Below, one piece after another: positions 1-29,455 of a DNA stretch of 64,000 nt; within the stretch, counting starts at the first letter, position 1, and every line of letters begins with the position of its first letter. The notes beneath the pieces are model-generated. The model searched no databases, was not told the origin of the DNA, and saw only the letters and a program-made list of their open reading frames with translations. The translations under genes were made by a program, and so were the position numbers. This DNA is from a virus (lineage: Duplodnaviria; Caudoviricetes). The DNA lies in IMG/VR virus record IMGVR_UViG_3300028797_000007, positions 1 through 64,000 of that record. One strand, written 5' to 3'.

Positions 1-63
1 GAAGCAACTCCAGCACAACAAGATTTAGTTGAAGCAGCTTTAGCAGAACTTAAAGAATTATAA
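1..63 (+). CDS. 3' end of upstream gene (partial), probably an AAA/Sak4-like ATPase (SPbeta YorG position)
   Basis: Frame 1 is open, EATPAQQDLVEAALAELKEL-TAA; product inferred only from synteny with the downstream replication module. Confidence 0.4.
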   Translation, partial: EATPAQQDLVEAALAELKEL

Positions 64-64
64 G

Positions 65-559
65 ATGGCGAATAAAAAGGTCATATGTAAGTATTGTGGT
101 GAGGCATTCGACAGAGAGCGTGAAGAGTGGACAAAAGTTTCCACTCGATACGCCCATAAGTCATGTTACGAAAAAGCACAATCAGAAGCTGCGGATTTGC
201 GCAAGGTGACCGATTTGATAAAAAGTCTATATTATCCTAAAGAACCTGATTGGGGAATTATTGGTTCTCAATTAAAAAGGTATAAAGATGAAGGTAAGAC
301 TTATATAGGTATGTATTATACATTAACATACTTTTTTGTCATAAAAGGAAATGATATACATAAGAGTGCTGGCGTAGGAATAATTCCTTATGCATATGAT
401 AAGGCACGTGCATATTATAAGAACATGGATAATACATATACAAAAACAGCCGAAATAAATAAGAGAGATAAAATAGATGTTAAGCAAACGGAAGACATCG
501 TAACAATAGTTCATCATAAGCCTACAAAAAAATTAATAGGTTTTACTTATGAAGAATAA
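65..559 (+). CDS. Conserved phage replication-module protein with N-terminal Zn motif (YorH-like)
   Basis: CxxC...HxxC at the N-terminus, GVGIIPY motif, directly upstream of the helicase. Confidence 0.6.
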   Translation: MANKKVICKYCGEAFDREREEWTKVSTRYAHKSCYEKAQSEAADLRKVTDLIKSLYYPKEPDWGIIGSQLKRYKDEGKTYIGMYYTLTYFFVIKGNDIHKSAGVGIIPYAYDKARAYYKNMDNTYTKTAEINKRDKIDVKQTEDIVTIVHHKPTKKLIGFTYEE

Positions 560-574
560 GAAAGGAGGATTACC

Positions 575-2149
575 GTGTATAATTCTCACGCAATAGAAAA
601 AGTATTAACTGGGTTATATTTAGATAATGATTTAATCATATCTAATGAATACCCCCTAAGGTTAGAAGACTTTGTTGAGAAGAAGTACCAAGCAATTTAT
701 ACTGCTTTATACAATTTATATGTATTAGGTAATAACCATATAGATATAAATGATATAGTAGCGTACTTTAGAGAACAACAAGGTATGTATGAAAAGTTTA
801 TAGCCGATGGAGGTATGGACATATTATATCAAATATGTGCTGATGAAAACCCTACAAACTTTGATTATAATTATTCTCTTATGAAGAAACAAAGTCTATT
901 GAGAGATTTTATTAAGTTGGGTATAGATGTGTCTGATTTATATGATAAAAACCTATCTCCCGAAGATTTTGAAAAACAAATGGCAAAGTTCAATGCGTTA
1001 GATATAGATGATATATTTAAGCATTATGAAGCGAAGATAAATAACTTACAAAACAAATATCAAAACTTAATAGAGAAAAGTTGTATTCATGTAGCTGACG
1101 GTATAGAAGAGCTATATAAAGAATTACAAACGGTACCAGAAGTTGGTCTTCCTTTAGAAGGAGAAATATATAATACCGTAACCAGAGGTGCACGTCTTAA
1201 AAAGTTATATATTGATTCTGGTTCATCAGGAACTGGTAAATCAAGACGTATGGCAGGTAATGCTGCACATTTAGCTATCCCTATGTTTTATAATGAAGAA
1301 ACATGTGAATGGGAAAACACTGGTATAGAAAACAAAGTATTATATATCACAACTGAGTTAGAGCATGCAGAAGTGCAAACATTAATTATAGCATATATCT
1401 CGGGAGTAAATGAGGATAAGATACTTAATAACAAGTATACACAAGAAGAGAGAGAAAGAGTAGAATTGGCTATACAATATATCCAACAATATGATAATAT
1501 AATTATCGAGTTTCTACCAAACCCAAGTATTGCTACAATTCAAACAACTATTAAGAAGCATGTTTTGCAAGAGGATGTAGAATATGTGTTCTATGATTAT
1601 ATCCACATTACTTCAGGTTTAACTGAAGGAAGAGATAAGAACACTCGTGACGATGTAATCTTGATGTTAGTGTCAGATACATTAAAGAATTTAGCAAATG
1701 AGTTAAATGTTCACATATCTACAGCAACACAATTGAATGGAGACTATGAAGATAAAGAAGTAAAAAATCAAAACTTAATTAGAGGTTCTAAAGCAATAGC
1801 GGATAAAGCAGACATAGGTGCTATTACATTACCACTTAATAATGCTGAGCAAGAATTAGGTCAAGCTTTAGCATTAAAATTAGGAACTTTAGAACCAAAC
1901 TTTATAACTGATATATATAAAAACCGTCGTGGTAAATGGACAGGTATCCGTATATGGAGAAACATAGATTTAGGTACTTGTAGAACCATAGATTGTTTCG
2001 TAACTGACCGAAAGAATGAACCTATAGATTTTAACAGCACAAGAGTTCAAATTAAGCAAGCTGGTAAAATTGGGGGATTTGTAGTTACAGAAAATAAAGC
2101 AGACCCTTATGTAAATTTCGGTGAAGAAGTAAGGGTAGAAGAAGAGTAG
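575..2149 (+). CDS. dnaB: Replicative DnaB-like helicase
   Basis: GTG start after AGGAGG; Walker A SGSSGTGKS, YITTE, FYDYI, TATQLN, IRGSKAIADKAD, KNRRG. Confidence 0.92.
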   Translation: MYNSHAIEKVLTGLYLDNDLIISNEYPLRLEDFVEKKYQAIYTALYNLYVLGNNHIDINDIVAYFREQQGMYEKFIADGGMDILYQICADENPTNFDYNYSLMKKQSLLRDFIKLGIDVSDLYDKNLSPEDFEKQMAKFNALDIDDIFKHYEAKINNLQNKYQNLIEKSCIHVADGIEELYKELQTVPEVGLPLEGEIYNTVTRGARLKKLYIDSGSSGTGKSRRMAGNAAHLAIPMFYNEETCEWENTGIENKVLYITTELEHAEVQTLIIAYISGVNEDKILNNKYTQEERERVELAIQYIQQYDNIIIEFLPNPSIATIQTTIKKHVLQEDVEYVFYDYIHITSGLTEGRDKNTRDDVILMLVSDTLKNLANELNVHISTATQLNGDYEDKEVKNQNLIRGSKAIADKADIGAITLPLNNAEQELGQALALKLGTLEPNFITDIYKNRRGKWTGIRIWRNIDLGTCRTIDCFVTDRKNEPIDFNSTRVQIKQAGKIGGFVVTENKADPYVNFGEEVRVEEE

Positions 2150-2150: not shown

Positions 2151-3293
2151 ATGCATGCAGGCGATATTTTAATTTCTAAACTAAATTCTTCAGACATTCT
2201 ACGTCTTATGGAGAAATTGGGTATCCCTGAAACTATGGTAAGATATGGGAATGATTGTTTAATCTTCCCTACCATTTGCCATAATGAATTAGTTTCTAAC
2301 CCATCTCATAAATTGTATTATTACGAGTCAAGTAAAAGGTTTTATTGCTATACAAATTGTAAAGCAATGAGTGTATATGATGTTATCATAAATAGTTATA
2401 AAGCAAGAGGAACAAAGATAACTTGGTCACAAGCATATGTTATTTTAGACTCCGTAGTTGAGGATAGAATGAAACATGGTTTTGCAGTTATTGAGCCCCC
2501 TGCTGAACATAAAGTTAAGAAGATAACAGAAGATTGGCCTGACCAATTAACAGTTTACAATCCACATGTTTTGGAATGTTTTACCCAACAACCCAAATAT
2601 TTGGCTCCATGGCTTGAAGAAGGCATTGATTATGATGTATTAAAAGAGTTTGGTGTTAGATTTGATATGGTTCGTAATAGAATAGTATTCCCAGTCATTG
2701 ACCATCTTGGTAGATTGGTTGGAATAAAAGTTAGAAACTTTAATCAAAAAGACTTAGAAGAACACAGAAAGTATATGCCATTATGGCATAACAAGGAGCT
2801 GTATAATTACCCTAAGATGATGGTAGCTTTTGGTTATTATCAAAATAGACAAGTAATTAAAAAAGCAAAAGAAGTTATAGTATATGAGGCAGAAAAATCA
2901 GTGTTAAAGCACGGGTCATATTTTACTCAAAATAAATCTATAGCCATTGGTGGAAGTTCTTTTAGTGAATATCATGGGGATATATTAAAGAAAGCAGGAG
3001 TTACTAAAGTTGTATTAGCATTAGATAACGACTGAGATGATGATGGTAATAAAGAGTATGGACTTAATAAGATGATTAATGAAGGTTACAAAGTTTTAGA
3101 TATGGGTTTTGATGTTGAATTGATATATGATTGAGATGGAGATTTACTGGGGAATAAAGATGCACCGATTGATAGAGGGCGTCAAATATATTCTAAACTT
3201 TATAGAGAAAGAAAGAATATTCTAGAGTTCCCAAGAGAAGTAAATAGCAAGGAGGACACCGGTGAAATACCAGTTACGAACGAAGAACTATAA
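2151..3293 (+). CDS. DNA primase (380 aa; TGA=Trp at 3033 and 3132)
   Basis: Zn-binding TICH...CYTNC, TOPRIM YEAEKS and ALDND; readthrough recovers C-terminal KDAPIDRG and ends at TAA 3291-3293. Confidence 0.9.
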
Positions 3294-5007
3294 CAACGAG
3301 ACTCCGGAACTAGCTCTAAATGATTTATTATATGACAGAGGTATAGAAAATCCTGTTGAGTGATTATATCCTAAAGAGGAATGTGAATACACTCCATTTA
3401 GATTTGCAAATATGAAGAAAGCGGTGGATATTTTACACACGGTGTTAAAAAGTCCAGAGTCAAGTATATTGGTCGTTGTAGATAGCGACTTAGATGGTTA
3501 TACGAGTGGAGCTATTATTTTAAGTTTATTAAATCAAACAAGTCATGGTCAAGATGTGAATTATGTTTTACATCCAGGGAAAGAACATGGAATTGATTTA
3601 AGAGATATACCAGATAGCACAGATTTAATAATTGTGCCAGATGCTGGTAGTTCTCAAAAAGAGGAACATTTAAAGTTATTAGAGAATGGAACAAAAATAA
3701 TTATATTAGACCACCATGAAATAGATAATGATTTTAACTATGGTCAATATGAAGATAATATAGCGATAGTAAGTAGTCAATTGGATTATCCTAATCCAGC
3801 ACTATCGGGAGCAGGAGTTGCATTAAAGTTTGTTCAAGCATATGCTCAAACATATGGAGTTCCTATTAGTAAAAAATTATATGCCTTAGCAGCTTGTGGT
3901 ATAGTTGCTGATGTAATGGATGTATCCGCCCTTGAAAATAAACGAATTATTGATGAGGGTATATCTTATATAGAAGAACATCCTTTCCTTATGGAATTAA
4001 TTAAAAAGGCACATTACAATATGGAAAATCCTAAACCTTCGATTAAAGATATAGGTTGAGTTATAGGCCCTAATATAAACTCTATAATTAGATTAGGAAC
4101 ACAGGCTCAAAAGCATATAATCTTTAAAGCATTGGTAACCCCAAATAATTTAACTTTTAGTAGTAAAAGGGGATGCGAGGATGAAGAAGTACCAATGTGA
4201 GAAGAGGCAATTCGCCTTTGTGAAAATGCAAAGAAAAGACAGACTACAGCAATAAATAAAAGCATTAAGATAATAGAAAGTGAACTAGAAGACGATGGTC
4301 ATAATTCAATAGTATTTGTTGATGAGAACCAAGATTTAACATTTGAATTATCAGGGTTAATCGCAAACAAATTATTAAGTGAAACAAATAAACCAGTTAT
4401 CTTATTACGCAAGTTTACTGACAATAAAGGCGTAGACCAATATAGAGGTAGCGTAAGAGGAAAAGCTGCTGAAGGGTTAGAAAATCTTAAGGAAGCTATC
4501 AAAGGTTTAACTGGAGTGGAAATGGCCGAAGGTCATGCATTCGCTTTTGGTATAGGAATAGATAGAGAGTCATTCCCATCATTCAAAATGCACCTAGATT
4601 CAGTGCTAGATGAAATAGACTTTAATACTAATTTATATTTGGTAGATTTAATAGCAAATTATAAAGAGGTACAAGTAAAAATAGCAGAGATATTTGCTGC
4701 TGATGATGTATGGTCTCATGGGGTAGATAAGCCATTGGCAATATTAACTGATATCCCTACTGATAATTATGAATTAATGGGTACAGATGGGCAGCATCTA
4801 AAAATAAATTGTGGACAATATGATATGGTTTTATTTAACGCCCCTGAATTAACACAAAGGTTAGAAGCAGGAGAAAAGTATAACTTAAATGTTGTAGGCG
4901 AATTTGATATAGATAAAGCATATAATGTGGGTAGATTACAATTTATAGTTAAAGATTATGAATTAACAGAGCATACAACTCAAACTATTTGGGATTATGC
5001 TTTTTAG
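3262..5007 (+). CDS. recJ: RecJ-like DHH ssDNA exonuclease (581 aa; TGA=Trp at 3361, 4057, 4198)
   Basis: GTG start after GGAGG; DSDLDG, PDAG, LDHH, LSGAGV, VAD, DIG(W)VIGPNINSIIRLG, GSVRG, EGHAFAFG; joins track ORFs 3412-4059 and 4516-5007 in one frame. Confidence 0.92.
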
Positions 5008-5015
5008 GAGGAAAC

Positions 5016-5321
5016 ATGCAAAAGTTTAAGAACTGGCTTATAGATGCCTTATTGAAAAAAGACAAACTTGTAGCAGTGCCTACGTCTTGGCAAACCGAAT
5101 ATGTTAAGTTAGCAGGCAATGCCGTAAGAAGCAAAGAAACTATCGCTACATTAATAACTGAATATAATAAAGTATTAAAAGACTTTTTTGATAAATGTAG
5201 TGTAAAAGAATTACAAGAAACTTTAGCAGATGGTGAAGTTAAATTTAAGACTAATATGTCTAAACAAGAGCTATCTGATTTAGCATACAAAGAGTTCAGA
5301 ATGACTATAGAAAGAGATTAG
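5016..5321 (+). CDS. Hypothetical protein
   Basis: AGGAGG RBS then ATG at 5016; TAG stop. Confidence 0.75.
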   Translation: MQKFKNWLIDALLKKDKLVAVPTSWQTEYVKLAGNAVRSKETIATLITEYNKVLKDFFDKCSVKELQETLADGEVKFKTNMSKQELSDLAYKEFRMTIERD

Positions 5322-5338
5322 TCTTTCTGAACTTTTTT
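5293..5338 (+). terminator. Intrinsic terminator-like hairpin
   Basis: AGTTCAGAA / TTCTGAACT with inner GACTA / TAGTC, followed by a T-run. Confidence 0.55.
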
Positions 5339-5341
5339 CTA

Positions 5342-5371
5342 TTGACAGGAAATGTCAAAAAATGATATAAT
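5342..5371 (+). promoter_or_regulatory. Sigma-A-like promoter
   Basis: TTGACA-N18-TATAAT with extended -10 TG; the -35 is one arm of TTGACA-N5-TGTCAA. Confidence 0.8.
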
Positions 5372-5401
5372 TATTATATAAAGAAGTATAAGGAGGAAAA
5401 T

Positions 5402-5773
5402 ATGTCAAGAGAAACAAAAAAATTCTATAGACCTGGTACTTTGCCAGAAAAGGGAACAAAAATTTCTTTAAAAACTCAGCCTTATATAAATGGGGTAGTA
5501 TTTGATATCAACGACCCGATTTCTTCATTTCATAAACTACTAATGAGTATGAAGGTTATTGTCGACGAGTATGAAATGCTACGTAATGTACCTGGTATAA
5601 ATGAAGCGGTACCTAGTGCTCTTAATTTACAATCAGGTATAACTGGTCAAGTAAAATTGCTATTAGATTACTTAAGCCAAAGCCCAATAGAGGTCGTCCT
5701 AAAAGAACAAAAAATTGATGAAGGCGTCCTAACGGATTTAGCATCCATAGGAGTTATAGATGAACGAAATTAG
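5402..5773 (+). CDS. Hypothetical protein
   Basis: AGGAGG RBS, 123 aa, TAG stop. Confidence 0.75.
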   Translation: MSRETKKFYRPGTLPEKGTKISLKTQPYINGVVFDINDPISSFHKLLMSMKVIVDEYEMLRNVPGINEAVPSALNLQSGITGQVKLLLDYLSQSPIEVVLKEQKIDEGVLTDLASIGVIDERN

Positions 5774-6002
5774 TAAACAATATAATGAATTATTAGATGC
5801 AGGGGCTTCCATTACTGAGTTATATGTTTATCACCTAATTGTTAATGACGAACGCAGTTTCGGGATGAGCGAAAAAGAAATGTTAGATATGGTAAGAGAA
5901 GCAATAGATAAAAGATATAGCTCTTCTGAAGGCATAGAATTTATCGTAGATAGCTTACTTAATGGCGATGAGCTTGATGGAGATGAAGACTTATGGTATT
6001 AA
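5760..6002 (+). CDS. Hypothetical acidic protein
   Basis: AGGAG RBS; overlaps neighbouring genes as in an operon. Confidence 0.7.
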   Translation: MNEISKQYNELLDAGASITELYVYHLIVNDERSFGMSEKEMLDMVREAIDKRYSSSEGIEFIVDSLLNGDELDGDEDLWY

Positions 6003-6451
6003 GAAAAATAACAATAGAAAACTTTTTAACACAAGAAGTTATATTTACTAAAACTATTCGTGGAGAATTTAATTGTATTGTAGAACCACATCAATTAGAA
6101 GGAGGAATCACACTACAAATTAATTTGTTTCGTGACCATCCCCAAATACACGAGTTCATAGAGAAGGCTTTAGAAAAGAAGGTTTTAAATAAACAACATA
6201 CTAAAGTTCGCACTGGTAGCGGAGTTTTAAGACTTACTTTTAACGATGATAAAAAGATGATGATTAATTCTGCTAACATGACAACAATAGATATAACCGA
6301 ATATAATTTTAATCCAAAAGATTTTGCTATTAAAGATTTTGAAAAAGGTAAGGTAGCTATATTTATAGATTTTACTTTTGATAAAGAAGTAGACAATCTT
6401 AAAGCCAAACAAGATGTTAAAGAGTTATTTATGGAGGTAAATGAATGTTAG
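5993..6451 (+). CDS. Hypothetical protein
   Basis: GGAG RBS, 152 aa, coupled to neighbours. Confidence 0.7.
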   Translation: MVLRKITIENFLTQEVIFTKTIRGEFNCIVEPHQLEGGITLQINLFRDHPQIHEFIEKALEKKVLNKQHTKVRTGSGVLRLTFNDDKKMMINSANMTTIDITEYNFNPKDFAIKDFEKGKVAIFIDFTFDKEVDNLKAKQDVKELFMEVNEC

Positions 6452-6690
6452 AAGATATCACTAGATTACAAGACCAAGTTGGTGTTTTAGTAAATTGGGT
6501 AGCTGAAATGAAAACATTAGTTCAGAATCCATATTCAGCAGGATTAAATATACCTAAAGTATTAGAAGACTTGGGAGGATATGCAGCAGATTTAACTAAA
6601 GCTGTATACGAATTAGAAAAAAGAGCAAATGAAGAATTAAGACCAGAGGCAGAAAGCTCTGAAACAAATTCTGATAGCGTAGAACAATAA
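6445..6690 (+). CDS. Hypothetical coiled-coil protein
   Basis: GGAGGT RBS, 81 aa. Confidence 0.7.
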   Translation: MLEDITRLQDQVGVLVNWVAEMKTLVQNPYSAGLNIPKVLEDLGGYAADLTKAVYELEKRANEELRPEAESSETNSDSVEQ

Positions 6691-6716
6691 AATACTTTTT
6701 TAATATAAATATATTA
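6675..6716 (+). repeat. Conserved intergenic element, copy 1
   Basis: TAGCGTA-N7-AAAATACT-TTTTTAATATAAATATATTA; the 20-mer is identical to 17659-17678. Confidence 0.6.
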
Positions 6717-6814
6717 TTAAAATATTTAACCAAGCGCATTTAGCTTTTTAAAAAGTAAATTGAACTTTTTAAAGTTTAATAAAAAAAAATATTTTTTAAA
6801 GAAAGGACAAACCA

Positions 6815-7090
6815 ATGAAATATTTAGTCACATGGGCATGGGAGATGGATGGACATGCTGGAGCATCAGCTGTAGTATGCGATTCTCTTAATGCTGTAAA
6901 GAAATATATGGAAGAATGTCTTAAAGATGATGAGGGAAAACCTATGGGTAAATTCACTCAATCTAGAACGACAGATTATGGATATGAATATTTTGGCGAA
7001 TGGGAATGTGGAGAGATAGCTCTATCTGTTCGCAAATTTAAAAACTATACCGAAATGAAAAACAAAGAAGTTTTTGCAAGAACTGGATAG
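6815..7090 (+). CDS. Hypothetical protein
   Basis: AAAGGA RBS, 91 aa, TAG stop. Confidence 0.7.
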   Translation: MKYLVTWAWEMDGHAGASAVVCDSLNAVKKYMEECLKDDEGKPMGKFTQSRTTDYGYEYFGEWECGEIALSVRKFKNYTEMKNKEVFARTG

Positions 7091-7119
7091 TTGACAAAAA
7101 AGATATTGTATTATACAAT
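7091..7119 (+). promoter_or_regulatory. Sigma-A-like promoter for DNA polymerase
   Basis: TTGACA-N17-TACAAT; the -10 lies within the palindrome ATATTGTA-TTA-TACAATAT. Confidence 0.75.
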
Positions 7120-7138
7120 ATTTGTATAGGAGGAAGAT

Positions 7139-10100
7139 ATGAGCTATACAAGTTTGCACAATCATACTGAATATAGTAACTTAAGATTGCTAGATTGTAT
7201 TAACAAAGTTGAAGACTTAATTAAACGTGCTTACGAGCTTGGGTTAAATGGTGTAGCAATAACAGACCATGAAGCCCTTTCGGCTCATATCAAAGCACTT
7301 AAGTTTTATAACCAACAATGTAAAGATAACGAGCAATGGAAGAACTTCAAACTTATCCTAGGCAACGAAATATATTTATGTCGTGATGGATTAAGTGCGG
7401 AGACTTATCAAAAAGGGGAAAAGTTTCCCCACTTTATTTTATTAGCAAAAGATGCTGAAGGTCATAAGCAATTAAGAGAATTGTCCACAAGGGCATGGTC
7501 TCATTCGTTTACTATGTTTATGACAAGAGTTCCAACTTATTATAAGGATATAGAAGAAGTTGTTAAAGCAAATCCTGGGCATATAATAGCTAGTTCCGCT
7601 TGTATAGGTGGTTGATTAGGTATATGTAAAATGAATGGAATGGAAGAAGAGGCTCGTCGTTTTATAAAATGGTGTAAAGAAATCTTTGGTGAAGATTTTT
7701 ATTTAGAACTTCAACCTGCTCGTTATCAAGAACAAATAGATTATAATAAGTGGTTATTATTTTTGGCAAAAGATACTGATACAAAATGTATTGTAACAAC
7801 CGATAGCCATTATTTAAAAGCAGAAGATAGAGAAGTTCATTCGTCTTTCTTAAATAGTAAAGACGGGGATAGAGAAACAGCAGAGTTCTATCAATATACT
7901 TATATGATGTCTGCTGATGAAATAAGAGAACTTACTAATGATTATATCTCCGAAGAAACCTTACAGTGGTTATTTGATAATACAAACGAAATTAACAACA
8001 AGATAGAACAATATGATTTAGCTCAACCACAAATCGTCCCACATTTAAGTGATGATAGAGATAGACATCCTGAATGGAAAGTAATTTATCCTCAAATTAA
8101 AATAAGGAATAAGTTTGAATATATTAACAAATATTATAATTCCGAATCAGAGGATGACCGTTATCTTATTTATTTAGGGTTAATGAAATTAACCTATATG
8201 GACTTAACTCCTGAAAAGAGAGAAAAATATCTTGAGCGATTAGAAACTGAATTAACTGAATGCTGGTTAGTATCTGAAAGATTAGGTCAACCGATTAGTT
8301 CATATTTATTAATGGTTCGTAATATCATACAAATAATGTGGGATAAAGCTGAAAGTTTAGTTGGTATATCTCGTGGTTCAGCAGGAGTTATGTTAATTAA
8401 CTATTTAATAGGCGTAACACAAATGAACCCATTAGAGCAAGGTATATATTTACCTCATTGGCGTTTCTTGGAAAGAAATAAAATTGAGTTACCAGATATA
8501 GATGTAGACTCAGAAGGTCGTCGCAGACCAGTAGTTCTTGAAAAGATTAAAGAAGCAGCACGAGCAGATGGTGGAGATAGTACTTGTGTATGTACATTTG
8601 GTACATTAGGTACAAGAAGTGCCATCTTAACAGCAGCGCGTGGTTTAGGTATCGATGTCGATGTTGCCCAATATTTAGCAACAATGATACCTCAAGAAAG
8701 AGGTTTCTTATGACCACTTAAAGATTGTATTGAAGGTAATCCTGAAAAAGACAGAAAACCTATAAAACAATTAATAGAAGAATTTAATAGATACCCTGGT
8801 TTTTTAGAAATGACAAGAGCTATCGAAGGATTGGTATGTCAAATGGGTATCCATGCATGTGGGCTAGTTGTATTTAATGTCCCAGTATATACATATAATG
8901 CAATGATGAAAGCACCAAATGGAACTGAGGTAACCCAATTCGATTTAGGTGATACTGAATATATGGGCGGTTTAAAAATGGACTGTCTTTCAGTTGAAGC
9001 ATTAGACAAAATACATACAACATTAGATTTATTATTAGCAGATAACTTAATTGAATGGCAAGGAGATTTAAAATCAACTTATGATAAATATCTTCACCCC
9101 GACATTCTTGAAAGAAATGCACATGAAATGTGGGAAAAGATTTGGAAAAATGAAATTATAGATATATTCCAAATGGACTCAACTGTTGGTAAGCAAAGTT
9201 TATCTTTGATTAAACCTGAAAGTATTCCTCAAATGGCAGCGGTTAACTCGTTGATGAGATTAATACCAGAAAAAGGTGCAAAGACACCAACAGAAGAATA
9301 TGTAATGTATAAGCAGCATCCAGAGTTGATTAAAAAAGAAATTGACAACCTAAATGCCACTGATAAAGAAAAAGAAATCTTATATAATTTTATGAAAGAC
9401 TATACAGGAGTTCTTGAAAGTCAAGAAAGTGCGATGTTAGCTGTAATGATACCAGAATTCACGGCATATGATGTACCGCATGCAAACAAGATTAGAAAAA
9501 TCATTGCAAAAAAGAAAATGAAAGAAATCGCATCTGCTAGAGAAGAATATTTTAAGACGGGAGCTGAGCGAGGAGTTAGTGAGGATATCCTTAAATATAT
9601 ATGGGATGTCCAAATCAAACGTCAGTTAGGTTATTCATTTAGTATTCCACATACAACAGCGTATTCTTTAATAGCTTTGCAAGAAATGAACTTAAATTAT
9701 CGTTATCACCCAATTTACTGGGCAACTGCTTGTTTAACTGTCAATAGTGGAGGAGCAGACGAAGAATCTGGTGGTACAACTAACTATGGTAAATTAAGTT
9801 CAGCAATTGGAAGGATTAAAAAGCAAGGTATTGAAGTCAGTTTGCCTGATATTAACAAAGCAAAGTTTGGTTTTACTCCAGACCAAGAAAATAATAGAAT
9901 TATTTATGGTCTTAAAGGTATAAGCGAAGTTGGTGATGATATAACTAATAAGATTATAGCAAACAGACCTTATACATCATTTGACGATTTTATGGCAAAA
10001 GTAGAACCAAGCAAAATTCAAGCAATAGCTTTAATCAAAGCAGGATGTTTTGATGAACTAGAAAATGAAAAAAGTAGAAAAGAATTACTTTATCAATATC

Positions 10101-10981
10101 TTAATAATTTAATCCCACCAAAAAATAAATTAACGTTAGCAAATGTCAATGGGTTAATTAATTATGATATATTGCCAAAAAACAAATCAAAATTTGTCTA
10201 TCTTTTCAATTTTAATAAGTATTTAAAACTTAATAAAAAAGATGAAAAGTATTATATAGATGAAAGGGCTTATGAGTATTTCAGTAAAAATTTTGATGTG
10301 TCATTATTAGATACAGATAAAAAAGGCACGTTTATCTATATAAAAACTTGGGATAATTTATATAAAGAAAAAATGATGGAACTTAAAGAATATATAATGA
10401 AAAACCAAGAAAAATTGATAGATAAATTACACGAAGCGGAGATTGGTGAAGTATGAGAACAATATTGTTCTGGTAGTATGTCAAAATGGGAAATGGATAC
10501 GCTAGGTTTTTATTATCACGAACACGATTTGTTAAATACTAGACACCCTGAATTTAAGTTTGTAGATTTTGATAAAGAGAGTAGTATCCCTATTCCTGCT
10601 GAATATAAAGAATATAAAGGGCATAAAATACCTGTATTTGAATTAAAGAGTATTTTAGGTACGGTATTAGATAAAAATAGTTATAAACATACAATTACAT
10701 TATTAACCCCTACAGGAGTTGTAAATGTAAAATGTGTAGGAGAACAATATAGTAAATATGATAAGCAATTATCACAGCTTAACCCTGAGACAGGCAAAAA
10801 AGAAGTAATAGAACGTTCTTGGTTTAAACGAGGAACTAATTTAATCGTTAATGGGTACAGAAGTGCTGACCAATTTATGGCTAGAAATAGACAAAGTGAA
10901 AATAAATTTGCTTTTTATAAGATTTTAGATGTAGATGATGTCGGTACACTAAACATAACTCGTTATAGAGCTGATGATTAG
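7139..10981 (+). CDS. dnaE: DNA polymerase III alpha subunit, family C (1280 aa; TGA=Trp at 7613, 8711, 10454)
   Basis: PHP motifs LHNHTEYS, AITDH, TTDSHY; SRGSAG, LPDIDVD, GIHACG, LKMDCL, GYSFSIPH; C-terminal OB fold; four track ORFs are in one frame separated only by single TGAs. Confidence 0.95.
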
Positions 10982-10989
10982 GAGAAATT

Positions 10990-12210
10990 ATGGTTAAAAA
11001 TATAGGTCTCATGGACTATGATGTATTAAGAACCAAATATTACGTAGCCCCTAACTATGATTTAAGTTTAGTTTATAATTATTTAAAGCAAGATAAGAAC
11101 TTAAACGTTCGCCTTATATCTTCTCCCTCTCCTGCTAATTTAGAGCAATATGATAAAATATATGTCTTTAAACAATCGCAATTTATTCCACATCCATCTG
11201 GTTTCATTAAAGATTATTATAAGTTACCAATAGAAGAATATGGTCCTGGTTTCATTGACAAGCCATTACGTCCATTTTTAATGGAAACTAGAGACATGCT
11301 ACCAGATTGTAGCTGTTATAATAATATGATATTATTTTCTTTAGACAAACCTATGAATAAAATAGCATGAAAAGTTGATACTAAATTTGCTGTTGGTAAA
11401 GAATATCAACCAATTAGGTTATATGAAACATTTGAAGGAGAAGAACTAAAAAAAGATTATCCTACAACTAAATATTGCTTACTTTATGACGACCCTGTTG
11501 AAATACTTAATAACAAAGAAAAGTGAGAATATTATCAAGAATTGCGAAACAAGAAACATAAATTTCTGTTCGCACACACACTCGATATTAGCCAGTTGAA
11601 TGATACTAATATATTAGAGCAAGTAATAACAAAATCTAGGTATGCGGCGTTCAGGCGACGTATGATAGCTACTAAACTCAATGATAATATCAATTGGCTT
11701 GTGAAAAGAATGATGGGCGAAAAATATAGAAAATTAGGAATGATTTTAGTTAAGCTTCCTACTGATAGCACACCTGAAACCTGCTTTGAAACTTTATTAC
11801 TTATGAATTATTATAATCATAAGACAGGTTTTAAATTAAACCTTCGCCCTATGTGGGACAAAGGATATCTGGAAGATTATGACCTTGCTCTTCTCGCTTT
11901 TAGATATCTTGTTGGGAAACCTCAATATATGTCATACTACGAATATGTTTTTAATATCTCTTACTTACGTAAAGGAGTCCAAAAAGAATTAATACATACA
12001 GGAGAAGATAGATATGAATATATATTTAGCCAATATGGTATGTCACCTTTATTAAAGGTGCTAGAAAAATGATTAAAGAACCATCCTCAATTTGAGGAAC
12101 ACATTTTTATAGGAGGTAGTTCAAATTATGACAAACAAAGAAGGAAATATTATGACGAGGGAAGAAGCGGCTTCAACATTAAACCAAGTGTTGACAACAT
12201 TAGCTCTTAA
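10990..12210 (+). CDS. Hypothetical protein (406 aa; TGA=Trp at 11368, 11524, 12070); N-terminus resembles phage B12-binding/radical-SAM-like proteins
   Basis: One frame from ATG 10990 to TAA 12208; NIGLMDYD...PNYDL N-terminus; no CxxxCxxC motif. Confidence 0.6.
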
Positions 12211-12355
12211 CTCAGTGCACAATAAAAGATTATTAGAGTATGCTGATGAACTAGATAGATACATTGCCTATTTAGATGCTCAAGAAGCAAAGAAAGAAGA
12301 AAAAGTAGAAGAACCTAAAGCAGGCGAAGAAACAAATGAACCAAAAGCAGAGTAA
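12128..12355 (+). CDS. Hypothetical protein
   Basis: AGGAGG RBS; alternative start at 12152; overlaps the end of the previous gene. Confidence 0.6.
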   Translation: MTNKEGNIMTREEAASTLNQVLTTLALNSVHNKRLLEYADELDRYIAYLDAQEAKKEEKVEEPKAGEETNEPKAE

Positions 12356-13037
12356 TCTACTTACTCTTGCTACGAAATTAGGCGTTGACATTCTTAACAT
12401 CTATGATTATCAAAATAAAGATAGTGTTATCAGATGTTCGTGCTCAAGCCACGGACATATAATAGAAAACACTGTTGATTATTTATTGAAGACTAATTTT
12501 GAGTGTATAGAATGTATGCACTTAAAAGCTATTGATGTTACGGATGTAACGCCCTTTTTCTTATCTTTAGATGCAGCCTCTTATGTTACTGGCATGTCTT
12601 TATTCAATAAAGAAGGGCAATTGTTAGGGCATAAAACTTTTAGTATTGATAAGAAAAAAGACTTCTTCGAACGTGTAGAAGAATTAAAGCGAGAGATAGA
12701 AAAAATAGTAAAGGAAAATAATATCCAATGTGTTATCTTGGAGGATATACAATACCAACAAAATCCTATACTATTTAAAAAACTAGCAATGTTGCAGGGT
12801 GTTTTACGTTATACTATAATAAATGAATTAAAAGTGCAACTGATAACTGCAATGGCTGATGAATGGAGAGCTTACAACCATATATATGGAACCAAAAGGC
12901 AAGACCAAAAGAAAGCAGCTATAGAAAGAGCACACGCCATTTTTAAGGATGATATACCCGAAGATGAAAGTGAATCCATCTTCTTAGGTTATTATGGCAT
13001 TCATATATATAACAACGGACCCCAAGAGGAAGATTAA
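12336..13037 (+). CDS. RuvC-like Holliday junction resolvase with N-terminal Zn-ribbon
   Basis: LSLDAASYVTG, VILEDIQ, LAMLQGVL, DESESIFLG acidic RNase-H-fold motifs; N-terminal CxC..HGH...CxxC. Confidence 0.75.
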   Translation: MNQKQSNLLTLATKLGVDILNIYDYQNKDSVIRCSCSSHGHIIENTVDYLLKTNFECIECMHLKAIDVTDVTPFFLSLDAASYVTGMSLFNKEGQLLGHKTFSIDKKKDFFERVEELKREIEKIVKENNIQCVILEDIQYQQNPILFKKLAMLQGVLRYTIINELKVQLITAMADEWRAYNHIYGTKRQDQKKAAIERAHAIFKDDIPEDESESIFLGYYGIHIYNNGPQEED

Positions 13038-13077
13038 ATCTACCTTAACATAATTTAACTAATTAGGAGGATTTAAA

Positions 13078-15285
13078 ATGGACATCATTAAAAGAGATGG
13101 AAGAATAGTTCAATTTGATAAAGAAAAAATTATCACAGCTATTTTAAAGGCCTTTGGAGCTGTAGGAACTATTGACGAATACGCTAAAACAAAGGCAGAA
13201 AATATTGCAAGTTATATTGCTGAAAAAGTAGAAGAAAGACCTGAGCCTTATGGAGTAGAAGAAATTCAAGACTTAGTAGAACAAGGTTTAATGAGCCTAA
13301 AACACAAGGATGTAGCAAAAGCCTATATCCTTTATAGAGAAGAAAGAAACAAGGTACGTCAAGGCAAAACAAGTTTAATGAAATTAATCGGTAAAAAAAT
13401 AGATGCCAGTGATGTGCAAAATCAAAACGCAAATATGGATGAGCATTCTTTTGGTGGACGTATGGGAGAAGCTCGTAATGAACTTATGAAAGACTACGCT
13501 TTAAATTATTGTGTTAGCAAAAAAACACGTGATAACCACGTAAACAATGAAATATATATCCATGATTTGGATAGTTATGCAGTAGGAGAACATAATTGTT
13601 TAACAATTCCTTTTGACGATTTATTAGCCAAAGGTTTTAATACTAGACAAACTGATGTTAGACCAGCTCGTTCAATTAATACAGCTATGCAATTAGTAGC
13701 GGTTATATTTCAATTACAATCATTACAACAATTTGGTGGAGTTAGTGCTTCACATTTAGACTGGACTATGGTTCCTTATGTAAGATTATCATTCTTTAAA
13801 CATTATAGAGATGGTATGAATTACATAGAAGAAATGGAGCTATCAGAAGATTATAATGAAACACTATCCATCGATGACGAAAAATACAAAAAATTCCCCA
13901 GAGTATATAAATACGCTATGGACAAAACTGAAAAAGAATTAATGCAAGCAGTGCAAGGCATGTATCATAACTTAAATACTCTACAATCTCGTAGTGGTAA
14001 TCAATTGCCATTTACATCTATTAATTATGGTACTTGTACATTACCAGAAGGTAGAATGGTAACTAAAGCATTATTAGAGGGTTCTATAGAAGGTGTTGGT
14101 AAAGTTAGAAAAACTCCTATATTCCCATGTGGTATATTCCAATGTATGAAAGGAGTTAATAGAGCACCAGGTGACCCTAATTATGATTTATTCCAATTAG
14201 CATTACGCTCTACTGCACAAAGATTATATCCTAACTATGTAAATGTAGATTGGTCAGTAAATGCAGGGTATGATAGAAATGACCCTAAGACCTACGTATC
14301 TACAATGGGATGTAGAACTTATAATGGAGCAGATATTAATGCTGAACCTGGTACTAATCCGCAAACTAAAGATGGACGTGGTAATATTGCCCCTACAACT
14401 ATTATTATGCCTACATTAGCAATGGAAGCAGATAGAGATGTAGAAAAATTTATGGAATTATTAGACCAAAAAATTCATGAAGCTAAAGATAGCTTAATTG
14501 AAAGATATCAACATGTTATTAGCCAAGACCCAGCATCAGCAAGATTTATGTATGAAAATGGTTTAATGCTTGGTTATGATGGTAAGACAGTAGAGTCTGC
14601 TATGAAACATGGTACATTAGTTATCGGTCAATTAGGTTTAGCTGAAACTTTACAATTATTAATCGGCAAAGACCATACAACTGAAGAAGGTATGGAATTG
14701 GCAAAAAGAATAGAACAGTTATTTAAAGACAGATGTGCTGAGTTTAAAAAAGACTTGCACCTAAATATAGGAGTTTATTACACTCCGGCAGAAAACTTAT
14801 GTTATACGGCTATGAAAAAGTTTAAAAAGAAATATGGAGAAATCCCTAACGTAAGCGATAGAGATTACTTTACTAACTCAATCCATGTACCAGTTTGGAA
14901 AGAAGTAGACCCATTTGAAAAGATAGATATTGAAAGTCAACTAACTGGATATAGTAACGCTGGATGTATTACTTACGTTGAGTTAGATAGCGGTGCAAAA
15001 AATAACCTAGAAGCATTAGAAGCATTAGTAAATTATGCCATGGATAAAGATATCCCTTATTTTGCTATTAATGTTCCTAATGATACTTGTTTAGACTGTG
15101 GCTATGTTGATGAGTTCAATGATGAATGTCCAATGTGTCATAGTCATAATATACAACAATTACGCCGTGTTACAGGATATTTAACTGGGGACTACAAAAC
15201 TGCTTTTAACTATGGTAAGCAAAAAGAAACCGAAGATAGATTTAAGCATTCCCAATTACTGGAGGATTGGAACAATGAAGTATAA
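13078..15285 (+). CDS. nrdD: Class III (anaerobic) ribonucleotide reductase
   Basis: ATP cone (IIKRDG), IHDLD, HNC, TMGCRT, TPAENL, CxxC/CxxC, glycyl-radical loop RRVTGYL. Confidence 0.97.
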   Translation: MDIIKRDGRIVQFDKEKIITAILKAFGAVGTIDEYAKTKAENIASYIAEKVEERPEPYGVEEIQDLVEQGLMSLKHKDVAKAYILYREERNKVRQGKTSLMKLIGKKIDASDVQNQNANMDEHSFGGRMGEARNELMKDYALNYCVSKKTRDNHVNNEIYIHDLDSYAVGEHNCLTIPFDDLLAKGFNTRQTDVRPARSINTAMQLVAVIFQLQSLQQFGGVSASHLDWTMVPYVRLSFFKHYRDGMNYIEEMELSEDYNETLSIDDEKYKKFPRVYKYAMDKTEKELMQAVQGMYHNLNTLQSRSGNQLPFTSINYGTCTLPEGRMVTKALLEGSIEGVGKVRKTPIFPCGIFQCMKGVNRAPGDPNYDLFQLALRSTAQRLYPNYVNVDWSVNAGYDRNDPKTYVSTMGCRTYNGADINAEPGTNPQTKDGRGNIAPTTIIMPTLAMEADRDVEKFMELLDQKIHEAKDSLIERYQHVISQDPASARFMYENGLMLGYDGKTVESAMKHGTLVIGQLGLAETLQLLIGKDHTTEEGMELAKRIEQLFKDRCAEFKKDLHLNIGVYYTPAENLCYTAMKKFKKKYGEIPNVSDRDYFTNSIHVPVWKEVDPFEKIDIESQLTGYSNAGCITYVELDSGAKNNLEALEALVNYAMDKDIPYFAINVPNDTCLDCGYVDEFNDECPMCHSHNIQQLRRVTGYLTGDYKTAFNYGKQKETEDRFKHSQLLEDWNNEV

Positions 15286-15769
15286 CAAAGTAGTAAAATT
15301 TGAAATAACAAATGGGAAGGGTATAGGCGTATCCTTGTTTACTCAAGGATGCCCTTACCACTGTCCAGGATGTTTTAACCCAGAAACTTGGGATTATGAT
15401 AAAGGAAACTTTTGAACACCTGGAGCCGAAGAAAAATTTTTAAAAAGTATATCTCGTAAATATATAACTAGAGTTAGTTTTCTAGGAGGAGAACCTCTTT
15501 CAGACATTAACTTACCTGACTTATTAAGGATAGTAAAAAAAATAAAGGAAGAATATCCTCAAAAGAAAATATGGTTCTATAGTGGAAATACTTATGAGAA
15601 TATGACAAAAGAACAGCTAGAAGTATTATCATATGCAAATTATTTAGTAGATGGCCCTTTTATATTAAATAAAAGAGACGTTAGCCTTCCTTTTAGAGGG
15701 TCAAGTAATCAACGTATAATTGATATACAAGAAACAATCAAAACAGGAGGGGTAGTCTTATATGAATAA
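15275..15769 (+). CDS. nrdG: Anaerobic RNR activase (radical SAM; TGA=Trp at 15413)
   Basis: GCPYHCPGCFN; after the TGA: LGGEP, WFYSG, DGPF, FRGSSNQR; TAA 15767-15769. Confidence 0.93.
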
Positions 15770-17732: not shown

Positions 17733-18650
17733 ATGAAATACTTAATAACTGGTAGTGGGTATTTAGCTAAACATCTTATAAAAGAACTTTTGAAATCAAA
17801 TGATGTAGAAAAAATTAAAGTATTCTCAAGAGCAGAAAAAGGTCAGTGAGAATTAACTAAGATTTTTAAAGATAAAAGAATAGATTTAATTATTGGTGAC
17901 ATCAGAGATGCTCAAGCCATCAATGATGCTATGAAAGATGTAGACTACTGTATTCACACTGGAGCTATTAAAAGAATTGAGGTTGCAGAAAAACAACCTA
18001 TGGAAGCAATTAAAACTAATGTAGTAGGAAGTATGAATGTAATTAACGCTTGTATAGCGAATGGTGTTAAAAAACTTATTCTTATTTCAACTGACAAAGC
18101 AACTTCTGCTACGACTTGTTATGGTAGCACAAAATTTTTAATGGAATGCATGGGTTATGCTAATGAAAGTAACACAGCAATTATTAGCACAAGATATGGT
18201 AATGTATTTGGTTCAACAGGTAGTGTTGTTCCTATATTTGATAATCTAGTTAAAAAAGATGAGCCACTAACTGTTCGTAATGGAGAAATGACTCGTTTCT
18301 TTATGCCGGTAGATAAATGTGTTAGTATAGTAATGGACGCTTTAAAAGATGGACAAAATGGTGAACTATGGGTTTATGAAAGTAAATCTTGTTCTATTCA
18401 AGAATTAGCAAACGCTTTTAGCAATAACCAAATCGTTACTGGAACTGAAAGCATTGAAAAAAATGATGAAGCACTTATTACCGTAAGTGAATTAAATCAT
18501 AGTAAGAAATATAAAGATTATTTTGTTATTCGCAAAGATTATGAAAGCGATATCAAATATGAGGAACCATTAACAAGTTATACTGCACAAAGATTAACAC
18601 AAGAAGAAATAAAACAAATGATAGAGGATTGGAGAGCAAATGAAAATTAA
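17733..18650 (+). CDS. UDP-GlcNAc 4,6-dehydratase (PseB/FlaA1/CapD family; TGA=Trp at 17847)
   Basis: FSRAEKGQ(W)EL, GDIRD, KTNVVG, STDKA, YGSTK, RYGNVFGSTGSVVP, MTRF. Confidence 0.9.
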
Positions 18651-19440
18651 GCTATACTCTCTCTATCCTCGCTTTAATGATTTTCAATTACCTAAATATA
18701 TTAAGTGGTCAGATGACGGGGAAATTGAAGCATACCAGGATTCATTTATATCATTAGGTATACAAAATAAAGATAATGGTAAAAAGAAAATTGCTATTAT
18801 TACTGAACCTAGATGTGTTTGGGAATTATTTTATAAAACTAATTTAAGTGATTTATTGGAAGAAAACCAGGGCGTATTTGAATATATATTCACTTACGAC
18901 TCCGTTATCCTAAATCTGCCAAATGCTAAACCGGTACCTTTTGCAGGAGTTTGAGATACAAATGACTTGGTAAAAACAAAAGATATATCAATGTGTTGCT
19001 CAAACAAATCAATGTGTGAAGGTCATTTATTAAGAAAAAAAGTTGCAGATAAATTGAAAGATAAAGTAGATGTTTTAGGAAACTATCTAGGACCTGTAAG
19101 AGTATCTACAAAAGATATTTATGGTGAATACAAATATAGCGTAGTTATGGAAAACGAAATTGACGAATGGTTTTTTACTGAAAAAGTATTAAATGCGTTT
19201 GCTAATAAATGCATCCCAATATATTATGGTTCACCTAAAGTATTAGATATATTTAACAAAGATGGTATTATCTATGTAGAAGATATAAATGATATAGAAA
19301 ATATAATAGATAATCTAAATCCTAATGAATATAAAAATCATTTGAAAGCAATAGAAGAAAACTATGAAAAGGTTAAAAAATATGTATGCTTTGAAGATTA
19401 CTTGTATGAAACCTATAAAGACTTATTGGAGGAATTATAA
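18640..19440 (+). CDS. GT10-like (fucosyltransferase-like) glycosyltransferase (TGA=Trp at 18952)
   Basis: ISMCCSNK..CEGH..R, YKYSVVMEN, FFTEKVLNAF, IPIYYG match the GT10 C-terminal motifs. Confidence 0.8.
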
Positions 19441-20657
19441 TGTTTAGTATTGTAATGATGTCTTGCGACAAATATAAATGTCTAGCCCCTGCTTTTGAAG
19501 CATGCTTAAATAAATATTACCCTAATCATCCAAAAATCTATTCAATCTTTGGTGATGATATATGGAGTAAGCGTTTAAGAGAAGGTGTTAAGCAAATTGA
19601 AGACGAATATATTTTATTTATGTTAGACGATATGTTCGTTAGAGAACCTGTTAATGAAGAATTAATAAACGATGCCTTACAAGTATTACAAAATAACCCA
19701 AAAGTTGCCGTAGTTAATTTTGAAAATAATTATAGAGATGCTATAGCATTTTCTGATAATTGGGTAGAACAAAAACAAAATCAAATGTATTTACATAGTT
19801 GTCAACCAAGTCTATGGAGAAAAGCTGCCTTAATAGATAATTTATCTAAAGACGAAGATGCTTGGTCATGAGAGATGACTTGGATAAATAATAATTGAAA
19901 ATATCTAATTAATAAAGGTGCTAATATTATTAATGTAGGGAGAACTAATGATTTAAACTGGGGAGTTGCAAGAGGAAAATTAACTAGTGAATGCAGGAGA
20001 TTTTTAATTTCCGAAGAATTATATTCAAATGAGATAAAAGAGTTCTTTAGACCGGTTAAATTAACTCTTATAACACCTTATTATAAAACTTTAAATGAAA
20101 CAAAAGAATTAGCCAATATATTAGGACCTCAGTTAACTGATGAAGTTGAGTGGATAATTATAGATGACGGCTGTCATGAGACAGAATTAGATAATTTACC
20201 TGCTAAGGTTATTCATTTAGAAAATAACAGTGGTAATGCAAGCATACCTCGTAATATCGGTTTGGATAATGCCGAAGGAACATACATTGGTTTTATTGAT
20301 AGTGATGATATGATTTCTCAAAGATATGTTGAAGTTTTATTAAATAAAATCAATGAGGAGATATTTGATTACTGTTTATTTAGTTGGAAATATAAACAAA
20401 ATGATTTAGGAGCTGTAATAATTACAGACCAACCACCAGCATGGAATCAATCTATTTGGAATTGTATTTATAAAAGAGATATGATAGGTAATATTAGATT
20501 TAATCCAGATATAGATTTTGGAGAAGATGCCTTATTTAATTACGAAACACGAAAGGGCATTAAAGTAAACGTTACAGACATATTATATATTTATAACGGT
20601 GGACGAATTGGTGGATTAACTTGAAGACAAGGACAAAAAGAAAAAGAGAGTGTGTAA
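19440..20657 (+). CDS. Two-domain glycosyltransferase: GT-A-like N-domain plus GT2 C-domain (405 aa; TGA=Trp at 19869, 19896, 20622)
   Basis: N-domain SCDKY, LFMLDD, QPSLW, AWS(W)E; C-domain ITPYY, IIIDDG, RNIGL, FIDSDD, GED. Confidence 0.82.
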
Positions 20658-28030: not shown

Positions 28031-29455
28031 CTATATTTTTTGTAGAGCATCTGCTTTATAGAATCCAGTTGTACCAGTATTATTTCCTATTTGATAAGGA
28101 TAAGGTCTGTTTTCTTTATGTCCATGCTCTACATCTCAAATATCTAAAACAGTTCTTACCCAACCAATACCATAAGCAGTATTTGAATCACCATAACTTG
28201 AACCATTGCCCGTTCCTATTATTTTAACTTTGTCTCCAATTTGAGGTTTGTTAGGAGTAGGTTCTGGTTTAGGTGGTTCTGTATAAGCAGTAATTGAACT
28301 TTCGTTCATCCAACCCAAATCTCCTGTTGTATTATAAGGATGAGCAGCTCCGTCTAATCTTCTTGTGATGTAAGTTTCGGTAGCTCCAACTACTCCATTA
28401 GGAGTGGCATCATTAGCTGTTAAATATAAATCCCCACTTACAATTACATGGTCGCCGATTTCAAACTTATAAGTAGGTGTTGGCGTTGGTGTTGGTGGGA
28501 CTGGTGCTTCTGCAGGTTCCAAATAGCTTGCAGCCATATAACCTACAGCCCCATCACTAACTACTTGTACGTGATAATAATGGTAACCATACTTATCATA
28601 TCCATCGTTTAAATATTTAACTAAAGTCCCTGTTTCATAAGTTCTTATCTTACCACCATTATCATCTAATAACCATAATGAACCGTTAATTACTTTATAA
28701 TAATCACTAGGTGTTGGTGCAGGTTGCCCATCAATCCAAGCTTGGACATCCGCTGGTTGATAAATGAAGCATTTAAAGTAATATTGACTTCCCATACCCC
28801 ATCTTCCATTTGCATTTGTTCTCGTTGAATTCCAGAATATAGCAGTACATCCATATCCAGATTCTGAAGTATAAATACTTCCATCTTCATTAACTCTTTC
28901 AACTGTCCCAACATGGCCACATCCTTCAGGACCTCCGCCCCAACAGATAATTGCTCCAACTCTTGGAGTTGAACCCATTGCTAAACCATCTTCAGCAGCT
29001 CTTTTATCAAAGTTAGCAGCATTACAATTTAAGTTAGTATAAGTACAACCGGTAGTTCCTCTGGCTGCATTTATGATTTCATTTGTACGTCCACTCGCAT
29101 ATCCAACGCAATTGGCCAATACGTCTGCATGTGGGTCGCATGGGTTCCCTTTAATACAAGTATTCCATCCACCAGAACCAGTTCTAATATAATTTAAGTT
29201 ATCATATGGTCTACTTGTTCTCATTGTAAAACCTAGAGCCCCAACACCTTCAGGCATTTCTGCATTTTCATTTTCAATAATTGTGTCTGGGTCATTCATT
29301 TCTTCAATACTATCTGTATTAAACAAGTATTGAATATTTTCATCATCAATGTCGTCTCTTAAGAATGCTTTAGCTACCATAGTTTGCATTTCTTTTGGAG
29401 CTTGTTCAATTCTGGCAATTTTTTCTTGCCATGTAAGTTTTTTATTTTCTTCCAT
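28031..29455 (-). CDS. Endolysin: CHAP domain plus SH3-like cell-wall-binding domains (474 aa; TGA=Trp at 28136)
   Basis: ANCVGY and CGHVGTVE catalytic Cys/His; GYMAASYL SH3b-like domain; PT-rich linkers; two IGD.V repeat domains. Confidence 0.88.

Follow-up and report, generated by a model that had tools for sequence, protein, structure and literature searches.

In-frame TGA codons aligned with tryptophan extend into the replication genes of an uncultured gut or rumen phage that carries a predicted tRNA(UCA)

The 64,000-nucleotide window analyzed here comprises positions 1–64,000 of IMG/VR record IMGVR_UViG_3300028797_000007, an uncultured gut or rumen phage (labelled G000 among its relatives) whose full record is 111,499 bp long with a G+C content of 32%. 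Several of its plus-strand replication genes are interrupted by in-frame TGA codons. Read with translation table 11, genes stop exactly at TGA, giving open reading frames (ORFs) at 2151–3035, 3412–4059, 7139–7615, 7631–8713, 8810–10456, 10990–11370 and 11542–12072, whereas table 4 yields the fused ORFs 2151–3293, 3262–5007, 7139–10981, 10990–12210 and 15212–15769. As the original prediction from this window had it, the interrupted genes include those for primase, RecJ, DnaE and NrdG, and one further gene without an assigned function is affected in the same way.

The region starts with a DnaB-type helicase gene (575–2149, plus strand, as are all genes of this paragraph; Pfam DnaB_C), which has no TGA and three TGG codons and is the final gene of a TGA-free block in G000. 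The start of a DnaG/TOPRIM-type primase gene (2151–3293; Pfam DUF6371/DNAG_N) directly abuts the DnaB stop. It carries TGA at codons 295 (3033–3035) and 328 (3132–3134), the first of which comes directly after ALDND, the TOPRIM DxD, where the prediction had placed it. The RecJ-like exonuclease gene (3262–5007; Pfam DHH and RecJ_OB) contains TGA at codons 34 (3361–3363), 266 (4057–4059) and 313 (4198–4200); the predicted position, codon 34, holds when codons are numbered from a GTG start with an AAGGAGG Shine-Dalgarno site. The gene for a DnaE-type DNA polymerase III alpha (7139–10981) has TGA at codons 159 (7613–7615), 525 (8711–8713) and 1106 (10454–10456). Its Pfam domains are PHP, DNA_pol3_alpha, finger and HHH_6, and codon 159 falls inside PHP (residues 6–193), again as predicted. 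A conserved gene without an assigned function follows (10990–12210; TGA codons 127, 179 and 361), and its product had no match in Pfam. The NrdD anaerobic ribonucleotide reductase gene (13078–15285; Pfam NRDD, ATP-cone and Gly_radical) has zero TGA and four TGG codons. The NrdG activase gene (15212–15769; Pfam Fer4_12 and Radical_SAM) has TGA at codon 68 (15413–15415), between the CxxxCxxC cluster and FLGGEP and so ahead of the GGEP motif, as expected.

For comparison, 12 related loci were collected from IMG/VR by DnaE, and then four complete sister genomes that use the standard code (G001–G004). Opposite the TGA codons of G000, the four sisters have tryptophan in 108 alignment cells, with tyrosine second at 15, and these residues mirror those found opposite the TGG codons of G000. 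Position by position, the sisters have WWWY and WWWW at primase codons 295 and 328; WWWW, WWWW and YYYY at RecJ codons 34, 266 and 313; WWWF, WWWW and WWWW at DnaE codons 159, 525 and 1106, where the alignment of DnaE relatives also has W; WWWW, LWLL and WWWW at codons 127, 179 and 361 of the gene at 10990–12210; and Y, F, E and W at NrdG codon 68. Coding density is 75.3% under code 11 versus 85.2% under code 4, and the sisters reach 82–85% under code 11. Judged from these comparisons of sequence, it is confirmed that the TGA breaks are not chance, and TGA would be read as tryptophan. The base after TGA showed no significant bias relative to the base after TGG in any of four genomes, and a weak pooled trend to fewer T was not used. 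In practical terms, annotation with code 4 is needed, as otherwise primase, RecJ, DnaE and NrdG show up as fragments.

The TGA codons are unevenly distributed over the genome. A plus-strand block runs from ~90.4 kb via the circular junction of the record to 21.8 kb, with early-type genes first and then, from 575, DnaB, primase, RecJ, DnaE, NrdD, NrdG and sugar-modifying enzymes. The late module lies on the minus strand at 21.9–66.3 kb (window part 21865–64000) and comprises tail, lysis, capsid, portal and terminase genes, with portal and Dit PHROGs. TGA and TGG were counted per module only in homology-supported gene parts, that is, those aligning to the sister genomes. TGA makes up 24% of tryptophan codons in the replication module (13 TGA, 42 TGG) and 20% in the late module (28 TGA, 109 TGG). 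Block A, a stretch of ~34 kb from 79.6 kb via the circular junction to 2.15 kb, has a single TGA versus 57 TGG in 30 genes. That TGA belongs to a TGnTATAAT promoter at 102,486, and the true count of sense TGA in block A is probably zero. By Fisher's test, block A differs from the rest (p = 1e-4), and replication and late genes do not differ from one another (p = 0.70). Counted by gene, in-frame TGA is present in 21 of 82 homology-supported genes: 0 of 30 in block A (with the promoter-borne TGA set aside), 6 of 15 in the replication module and 14 of 28 in the late module. The gradient is the same in the recoded sisters G005/G006, for which the tally of TGA/TGG is ~4/38 in block A, 15/28 in replication genes and 28/27 in late genes.

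No block A gene terminates in TGA. Because TGA serves there neither as sense codon nor as stop, block A reads alike under either code. Its contents are the tRNA array, a transfer-messenger RNA (tmRNA), RNA-repair-type enzymes, a ubiquitin-like cassette, Sak4 and DnaB. The segment at 103,806–108,405, where large unknown genes give way to JAB-like and ThiF/E1-like genes, is TGA-free in all three recoded lineages. A recent import of block A from a standard-code sister was considered and is unlikely, its identity to the sisters being no higher than that of the rest of the genome. TGA is also absent from the putative major capsid gene (57945–58970) and the putative major tail gene (53231–54205), in G000 and in every recoded relative examined, which fits avoidance in the most highly expressed genes. 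The original prediction held that UGA must be decoded from the start of infection. This was overstated, since the ~30 genes of block A, with 0–1 TGA, make possible a stage before UGA decoding.

ARAGORN found no tRNAs in the window and 26 in the whole genome. Among these is a 96-nt tRNA(UCA) at 87,418–87,513 on the minus strand, outside the window. No RF-1 domain, the mark of a release factor, and no domain of the class-I tryptophanyl-tRNA synthetase (TrpRS) type was found anywhere in the genome. The observation that the window lacks both a tRNA(UCA) and a release-factor gene is thereby upheld, and the proposed search of the full genome yielded the tRNA and no release factor. Two alternatives had been offered, a host natively using code 4 and a phage suppressor encoded outside the window; the second is borne out by this gene, and the first is unlikely, as discussed below.

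The tRNA(UCA), third in a leftward array of 22 tRNAs, has G73 and an acceptor stem of 7 bp, and in Rfam it ranks as an ordinary tRNA (61 bits). Its extra arm forms a second hairpin with the loop CUCCAAA, identical to the anticodon loop of the phage tRNA-Trp(CCA), and ARAGORN labels it 'SeC(tca)' only because of this long extra arm. The recoded sister G006 carries tRNA(UCA) at the same site, after tRNA-His; between the two phages the CUCCAAA loop is retained and the stem is different on both strands. The tRNA(UCA) was not found in the complete sisters G001–G004, which also have no in-frame TGA in homology-supported genes, and against the sister sequences it stands out as a discrete ~100-bp insertion. 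Its identity is 97% to distant G014, the DnaE of which is only ~43% identical, versus 85% to the closer sister G006. Such a pattern points to transfer or gene conversion between phage clades, and tRNA(UCA) was probably gained by transfer between phages.

A pattern search for the two-hairpin tRNA returned 19 viral contigs and 70 metagenome contigs. DnaE is without an in-frame stop in 11 of the 12 other viral carriers that have a DnaE match, and in G014 (136 kb) and G010 recoding is confined to tail and lysis-type genes. The exception is G013, with 185 TGA versus 131 TGG in long ORFs (TGA being ~59% of tryptophan codons) and with primase, RecJ and DnaE all recoded. Its Sak4, neighbour gene and DnaB together have 0 TGA and 11 TGG (DnaB 0 and 5), which is the same border as in G000. 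In the DnaE tree, G000 groups with four recoded sister contigs in a single clade (support 1.0), which is embedded among the standard-code sisters. Replication-gene recoding thus arose at least two times among carriers of this tRNA type.

These relatives bear on the premise of the original prediction, namely that stop-recoded phages concentrate recoded codons in the genes for structural proteins and for lysis. Published crAss-like and Agate examples do keep their replication genes in the standard code (Borges et al., bioRxiv 10.1101/2021.08.26.457843; later Nat Microbiol), and the stop-free DnaE of 11 of 12 carriers agrees with the Agate pattern. The premise nonetheless goes too far, as replication-gene recoding is already termed variable in the same work (Borges et al., 10.1101/2021.08.26.457843).

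Promoters were sought as matches with at most one mismatch to TTGACA, a spacer of 16–18 nt and TATAAT, the sigma-A-type consensus of the presumed host, with expectations taken from dinucleotide shuffles. The region 66.4–111.5 kb has 41 sites versus 3.7 expected, an 11-fold excess. The replication module has 8 sites versus 1.7 expected, and the late module has 3 versus 4.4. The strands of the sites match those of the genes, with divergence at about 90.24/90.36 kb. Four near-consensus sites on the minus strand lie at 89,191–90,236, and tRNA(UCA) is 1.7–2.8 kb downstream of them. One site, with TTGACA, a 17-nt spacer and TACAAT (7091–7119, plus strand), precedes the dnaE start codon (7139) by ~20 nt. 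Both the tRNA array and the replication genes thus resemble genes transcribed by unmodified host RNA polymerase. The excess of promoter sites supports the predicted status of the replication genes as early or middle genes. Because of the in-frame TGAs, the replication proteins would be completed only after tRNA(UCA) has been made and charged. UGA decoding would therefore be needed before replication, not at time zero.

Taken together, we favor a reading, at a probability of roughly two in three, in which a siphovirus-type phage with a complete, circularly assembled genome of 111.5 kb infects a walled, standard-code Bacillota host and decodes UGA as tryptophan by means of a phage-encoded tRNA(UCA), the switch coming before replication and not at time zero. 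This reading builds on what is directly seen, namely where the TGAs lie and that they correspond to tryptophan, the tRNA, a block free of TGA, how the promoters are distributed and what the relatives show; the timing, the charging by host TrpRS and the genetic code of the host are inferred. Host RNA polymerase would transcribe block A immediately, tRNA(UCA) would be charged by host TrpRS, and full-length primase, RecJ, DnaE and NrdG, along with all late proteins, would be possible only thereafter. The TGA codons of the replication genes would then represent a passive spread of TGG-to-TGA changes into all genes that are translated once the suppressor is present, and purifying selection would exclude TGA from the pre-switch genes and from the putative major capsid and major tail genes.

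Several observations weigh against this reading. A perfect site of TTGACA, 17 nt and TATAAT (~66,366–66,394, minus strand) heads the late operon, which is otherwise without such sites, so promoter type alone cannot order temporal classes; the timing is drawn from promoter-like sites and gene order only. The right-hand border of block A is not fixed, since DnaB and two neighbour genes carry TGA in G005–G008 (two in DnaB). TGA stops are rare clade-wide, including in the sisters without the tRNA (3–8%, with TAG at 26–33%), versus 28% in Lactococcus phage 949 at the same G+C. Several of these rare TGA stops are backed by an immediate TAA in the standard-code sisters. The scarcity of TGA stops throughout the clade would be compatible, too, with a host where UGA is a poor terminator. 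Lastly, the eight TGA codons in DnaE of G005/G006 demand very efficient suppression, and no phage factor acting against release factor 2 (RF2) is known here. The tandem stops are seen at G002 19267–19992 and G004 17784–18512, and one example is the orthologue of the window gene at 54229–54960.

The TGA codons in primase, RecJ, DnaE and NrdG could instead be an adaptive gate that makes replication dependent on the phage tRNA, for example by delaying replication until takeover is complete or by denying use of the genes to the host or to competing phages. The border between a TGA-free DnaB and recoding from primase onward is shared by two independent lineages, G000 and G013. The abutting DnaB stop and primase start mean that any gate would be translational, and with host-type promoters on the replication genes transcription alone would impose no delay. 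However, TGA is not enriched in replication genes (24% versus 20% in late genes, p = 0.70), the positions are scattered and not near the 5′ end (295/328, 34/266/313 and 159/525/1106), and they vary between sisters, as drift predicts. A 5′ 'lock', with TGA restricted to the first ~80 codons, is thus absent here. DnaB itself has TGA in G005–G008, and 11 of 12 carriers of the tRNA type have none in DnaE. We consider such a gate improbable. Passive spread is preferred over it because of the equal replication and late densities, the scattered, non-conserved positions, and the lack of TGA in the putative capsid and tail genes.

Just as tentative is a stronger version of the evolutionary argument, in which the switch has moved ahead of replication in G000 and independently in G013, so that the whole replicative programme would be licensed by one horizontally acquired tRNA. 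With 3–8 UGAs per DnaE to be read in a host that possesses RF2, an undescribed phage function that disables or outcompetes RF2 would then be needed, and its gene would be one of the large TGA-free unknown genes at 98.6–106.8 kb.

Somewhat less probable still is that the host natively reads UGA as tryptophan, through code 4 or the lack of RF2, so that decoding would start at time zero and the tRNA(UCA) of the phage would only add capacity. In its favor, TGA is as dense in replication genes as in late genes, DnaE of G005/G006 has up to eight TGA codons, TGA stops are depleted clade-wide (often tandem, even in the sisters lacking the tRNA, and unlike phage 949), and the phage has neither release factor nor TrpRS. 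The sisters G001–G004 are difficult to reconcile with it. Lacking tRNA(UCA), they have zero sense TGA versus 192–227 TGG each in the aligned stretches, which would not be expected at a G+C of 32% had their hosts decoded TGA as tryptophan. In G000, TGA accounts for merely 20–24% of tryptophan codons, and a 34-kb block is held free of it. The CCA-loop decoy arm on tRNA(UCA) makes most sense if TrpRS expects CCA. The 70 metagenome contigs with this tRNA type mostly have it in phage-style tRNA arrays; of the two annotated contigs with a solitary tRNA, L140 is clearly phage (lysin, tail fibre) and L153 has only a UvrD-type helicase, and no chromosomal context was seen.

The cell wall of the host provides a further argument against native code 4. 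The known code-4 Bacillota are the wall-less Mollicutes. The late module of G000 includes a CHAP lysin gene (28031–29455), and this peptidoglycan hydrolase, which resembles those of Clostridium innocuum and Staphylococcus phages, speaks against a Mollicutes host. A walled, standard-code Bacillota is the most likely host, to which several other features point. A Shine-Dalgarno motif precedes 40 of 60 genes versus 6% of random windows, and the promoters show the extended −10 form (TGnTATAAT). The portal is similar to portals of Lactococcus 949-like and Brevibacillus phages, and DnaE to that of SPbeta. ROOL and OLE-like RNAs were also counted toward a Bacillota host. A search of genome contigs gave a single hit, a sister phage contig of 119,960 bp that had been assigned to a 2.0-Mb metagenome-assembled genome (MAG) of an 'uncultured Bacteroidaceae'. 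As a clue to the host, Bacteroidaceae was rejected in view of the strong Shine-Dalgarno sites and the TTGACA/TGnTATAAT promoters of the phage. The MAG holds two RF-1-domain genes, a weak clue against native code 4.

A reading in which the breaks go undecoded (defective phage, pseudogenes or assembly errors) or specify selenocysteine can draw on the 'SeC(tca)' call for the 96-nt tRNA and on the fragmentation under table 11, but it is highly improbable and was rejected: every break is TGA, never TAA or TAG, and the alignments give tryptophan; the same pattern recurs in independent contigs from several samples; and the 7-bp acceptor stem, the Trp-like second hairpin and the Rfam score of an ordinary tRNA do not correspond to tRNA-Sec architecture.

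The remainder of the genome is rich in RNA genes. A region of small ORFs and RNA genes extends over 66.4–90.3 kb and includes the 22 tRNAs on the minus strand; four further tRNAs and the tmRNA lie on the plus strand at 92.5–97.3 kb. At 88,480–88,570 (minus strand) lies a tRNA-Ser predicted by ARAGORN whose anticodon is ACU; most sisters have GCU, and the distant contig L170 also has ACU. The tmRNA (92,747–93,142, plus strand; RF00023) scores 47.6 bits, at threshold. It is common to standard-code and recoded sisters and thus not specific to recoding. Beside the tRNA array, a full-length ROOL RNA is found at 78,319–78,907 (minus strand; Rfam RF03087, 187 bits), and because this stretch is ROOL RNA, several TGA-bearing 'ORFs' in it are spurious. 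Only the 3′ quarter of an OLE RNA is present at 83,164–83,318 (minus strand; RF01071, model positions 437–594, 102 bits), and this OLE-like stretch is kept at 76–87% in sister phages and in the distant G013 and G014. A further ~800 nt at 97,650–98,450 are 69–78% conserved in sisters and distant phages. This segment has no reading frame open throughout in the standard-code sisters and no match in Rfam, and it may be a large non-coding RNA.

The ends of the record also call for comment. IMG/VR rates the record as complete, with 'direct terminal repeats'. The 127-bp 'terminal repeat', which comprises window positions 1–127 and the other end of the record, cuts through the Sak4-like gene (110,419–111,435), which enters the repeat, and through the following gene, which begins at base 65. 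The record is best regarded as a circular assembly in which the repeat looks like an assembly overlap and not like the actual genome ends.

The favored account of stop-codon recoding in phages is the control of late and lysis genes. In G000, four sister contigs and one independent lineage, recoding spans the replication machinery at late-gene density, and a small set of genes around the tRNA array is code-neutral. This suggests a ratchet: after arrival of the suppressor, TGA spreads to every later-translated gene, and the distribution of TGA marks the pre-switch genes. Standard-code sisters, late-only relatives and replication-plus-late phages, the recoded ones sharing one tRNA type, form a natural study set for the pace and order of a code change.

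Among known systems, phages of native code-4 or code-25 hosts are like G000 in using TGA for an amino acid in replication genes too. They differ in extent, since ~90% of code-25 phage genes contain in-frame TGA (Borges et al., 10.1101/2021.08.26.457843), compared with 21 of 82 here, where TGA is the minority tryptophan codon. Lactococcus phage 949 (Audreyjarvisvirus) and SPbeta-like Bacillus phages resemble G000 in the order of their helicase, primase and RecJ-like genes, in having a large tRNA region and in genome size (~115–135 kb). The DnaE of G000 shares 42.7% identity with SPbeta YorL across 99% of its length, and its portal is ~27% identical to that of 949-like phages. Unlike G000, these phages use the standard code, with phage 949 ending 28% of its ORFs in TGA, and phage 949 has a tRNA with a CUA anticodon, not UCA. 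This amber tRNA of a cultured phage stands beside tRNA-Trp (L060:46865–46937) and is annotated as tRNA-Sup, though the phage is treated as standard-code.

In the published code-switch model, standard-code genes lead, together with the suppressor tRNA, and recoded genes can be translated later (Borges et al., 10.1101/2021.08.26.457843, Fig. 6). A TGA-free block that contains tRNA(UCA) fits this model exactly. The difference is that the switch point in G000 would lie ahead of DNA replication and not only ahead of the structural and lysis genes, and because of that placement lysis timing cannot be the sole benefit in this lineage.

The closest parallel is the Agate clade, with genomes of ~110–135 kb and low G+C from animal gut or rumen, hosts predicted to be Firmicutes, TGA read as tryptophan via a phage tRNA(UCA), and recoded late genes. 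Both groups have close standard-code sisters, with ~3% TGA and ~25–30% TAG stops. A standard-code Agate relative has TGA stops in 4 of 146 genes, which was read as codon loss preceding recoding (Borges et al., 10.1101/2021.08.26.457843), and the sisters analyzed here have 4–11 in 111–130 genes. The replication machinery of the published Agate examples is without in-frame stops, whereas G000 has two TGA codons in primase, three in RecJ, three in DnaE and one in NrdG. Its DnaE is only 41–43% identical to that of G014-type phages, and the G000 sub-clade may lie outside Agate proper, linked to it only by the shared tRNA type and the matching stop-codon profile. G000 is thus a fairly extreme new example of a published phage type, not a new mechanism.

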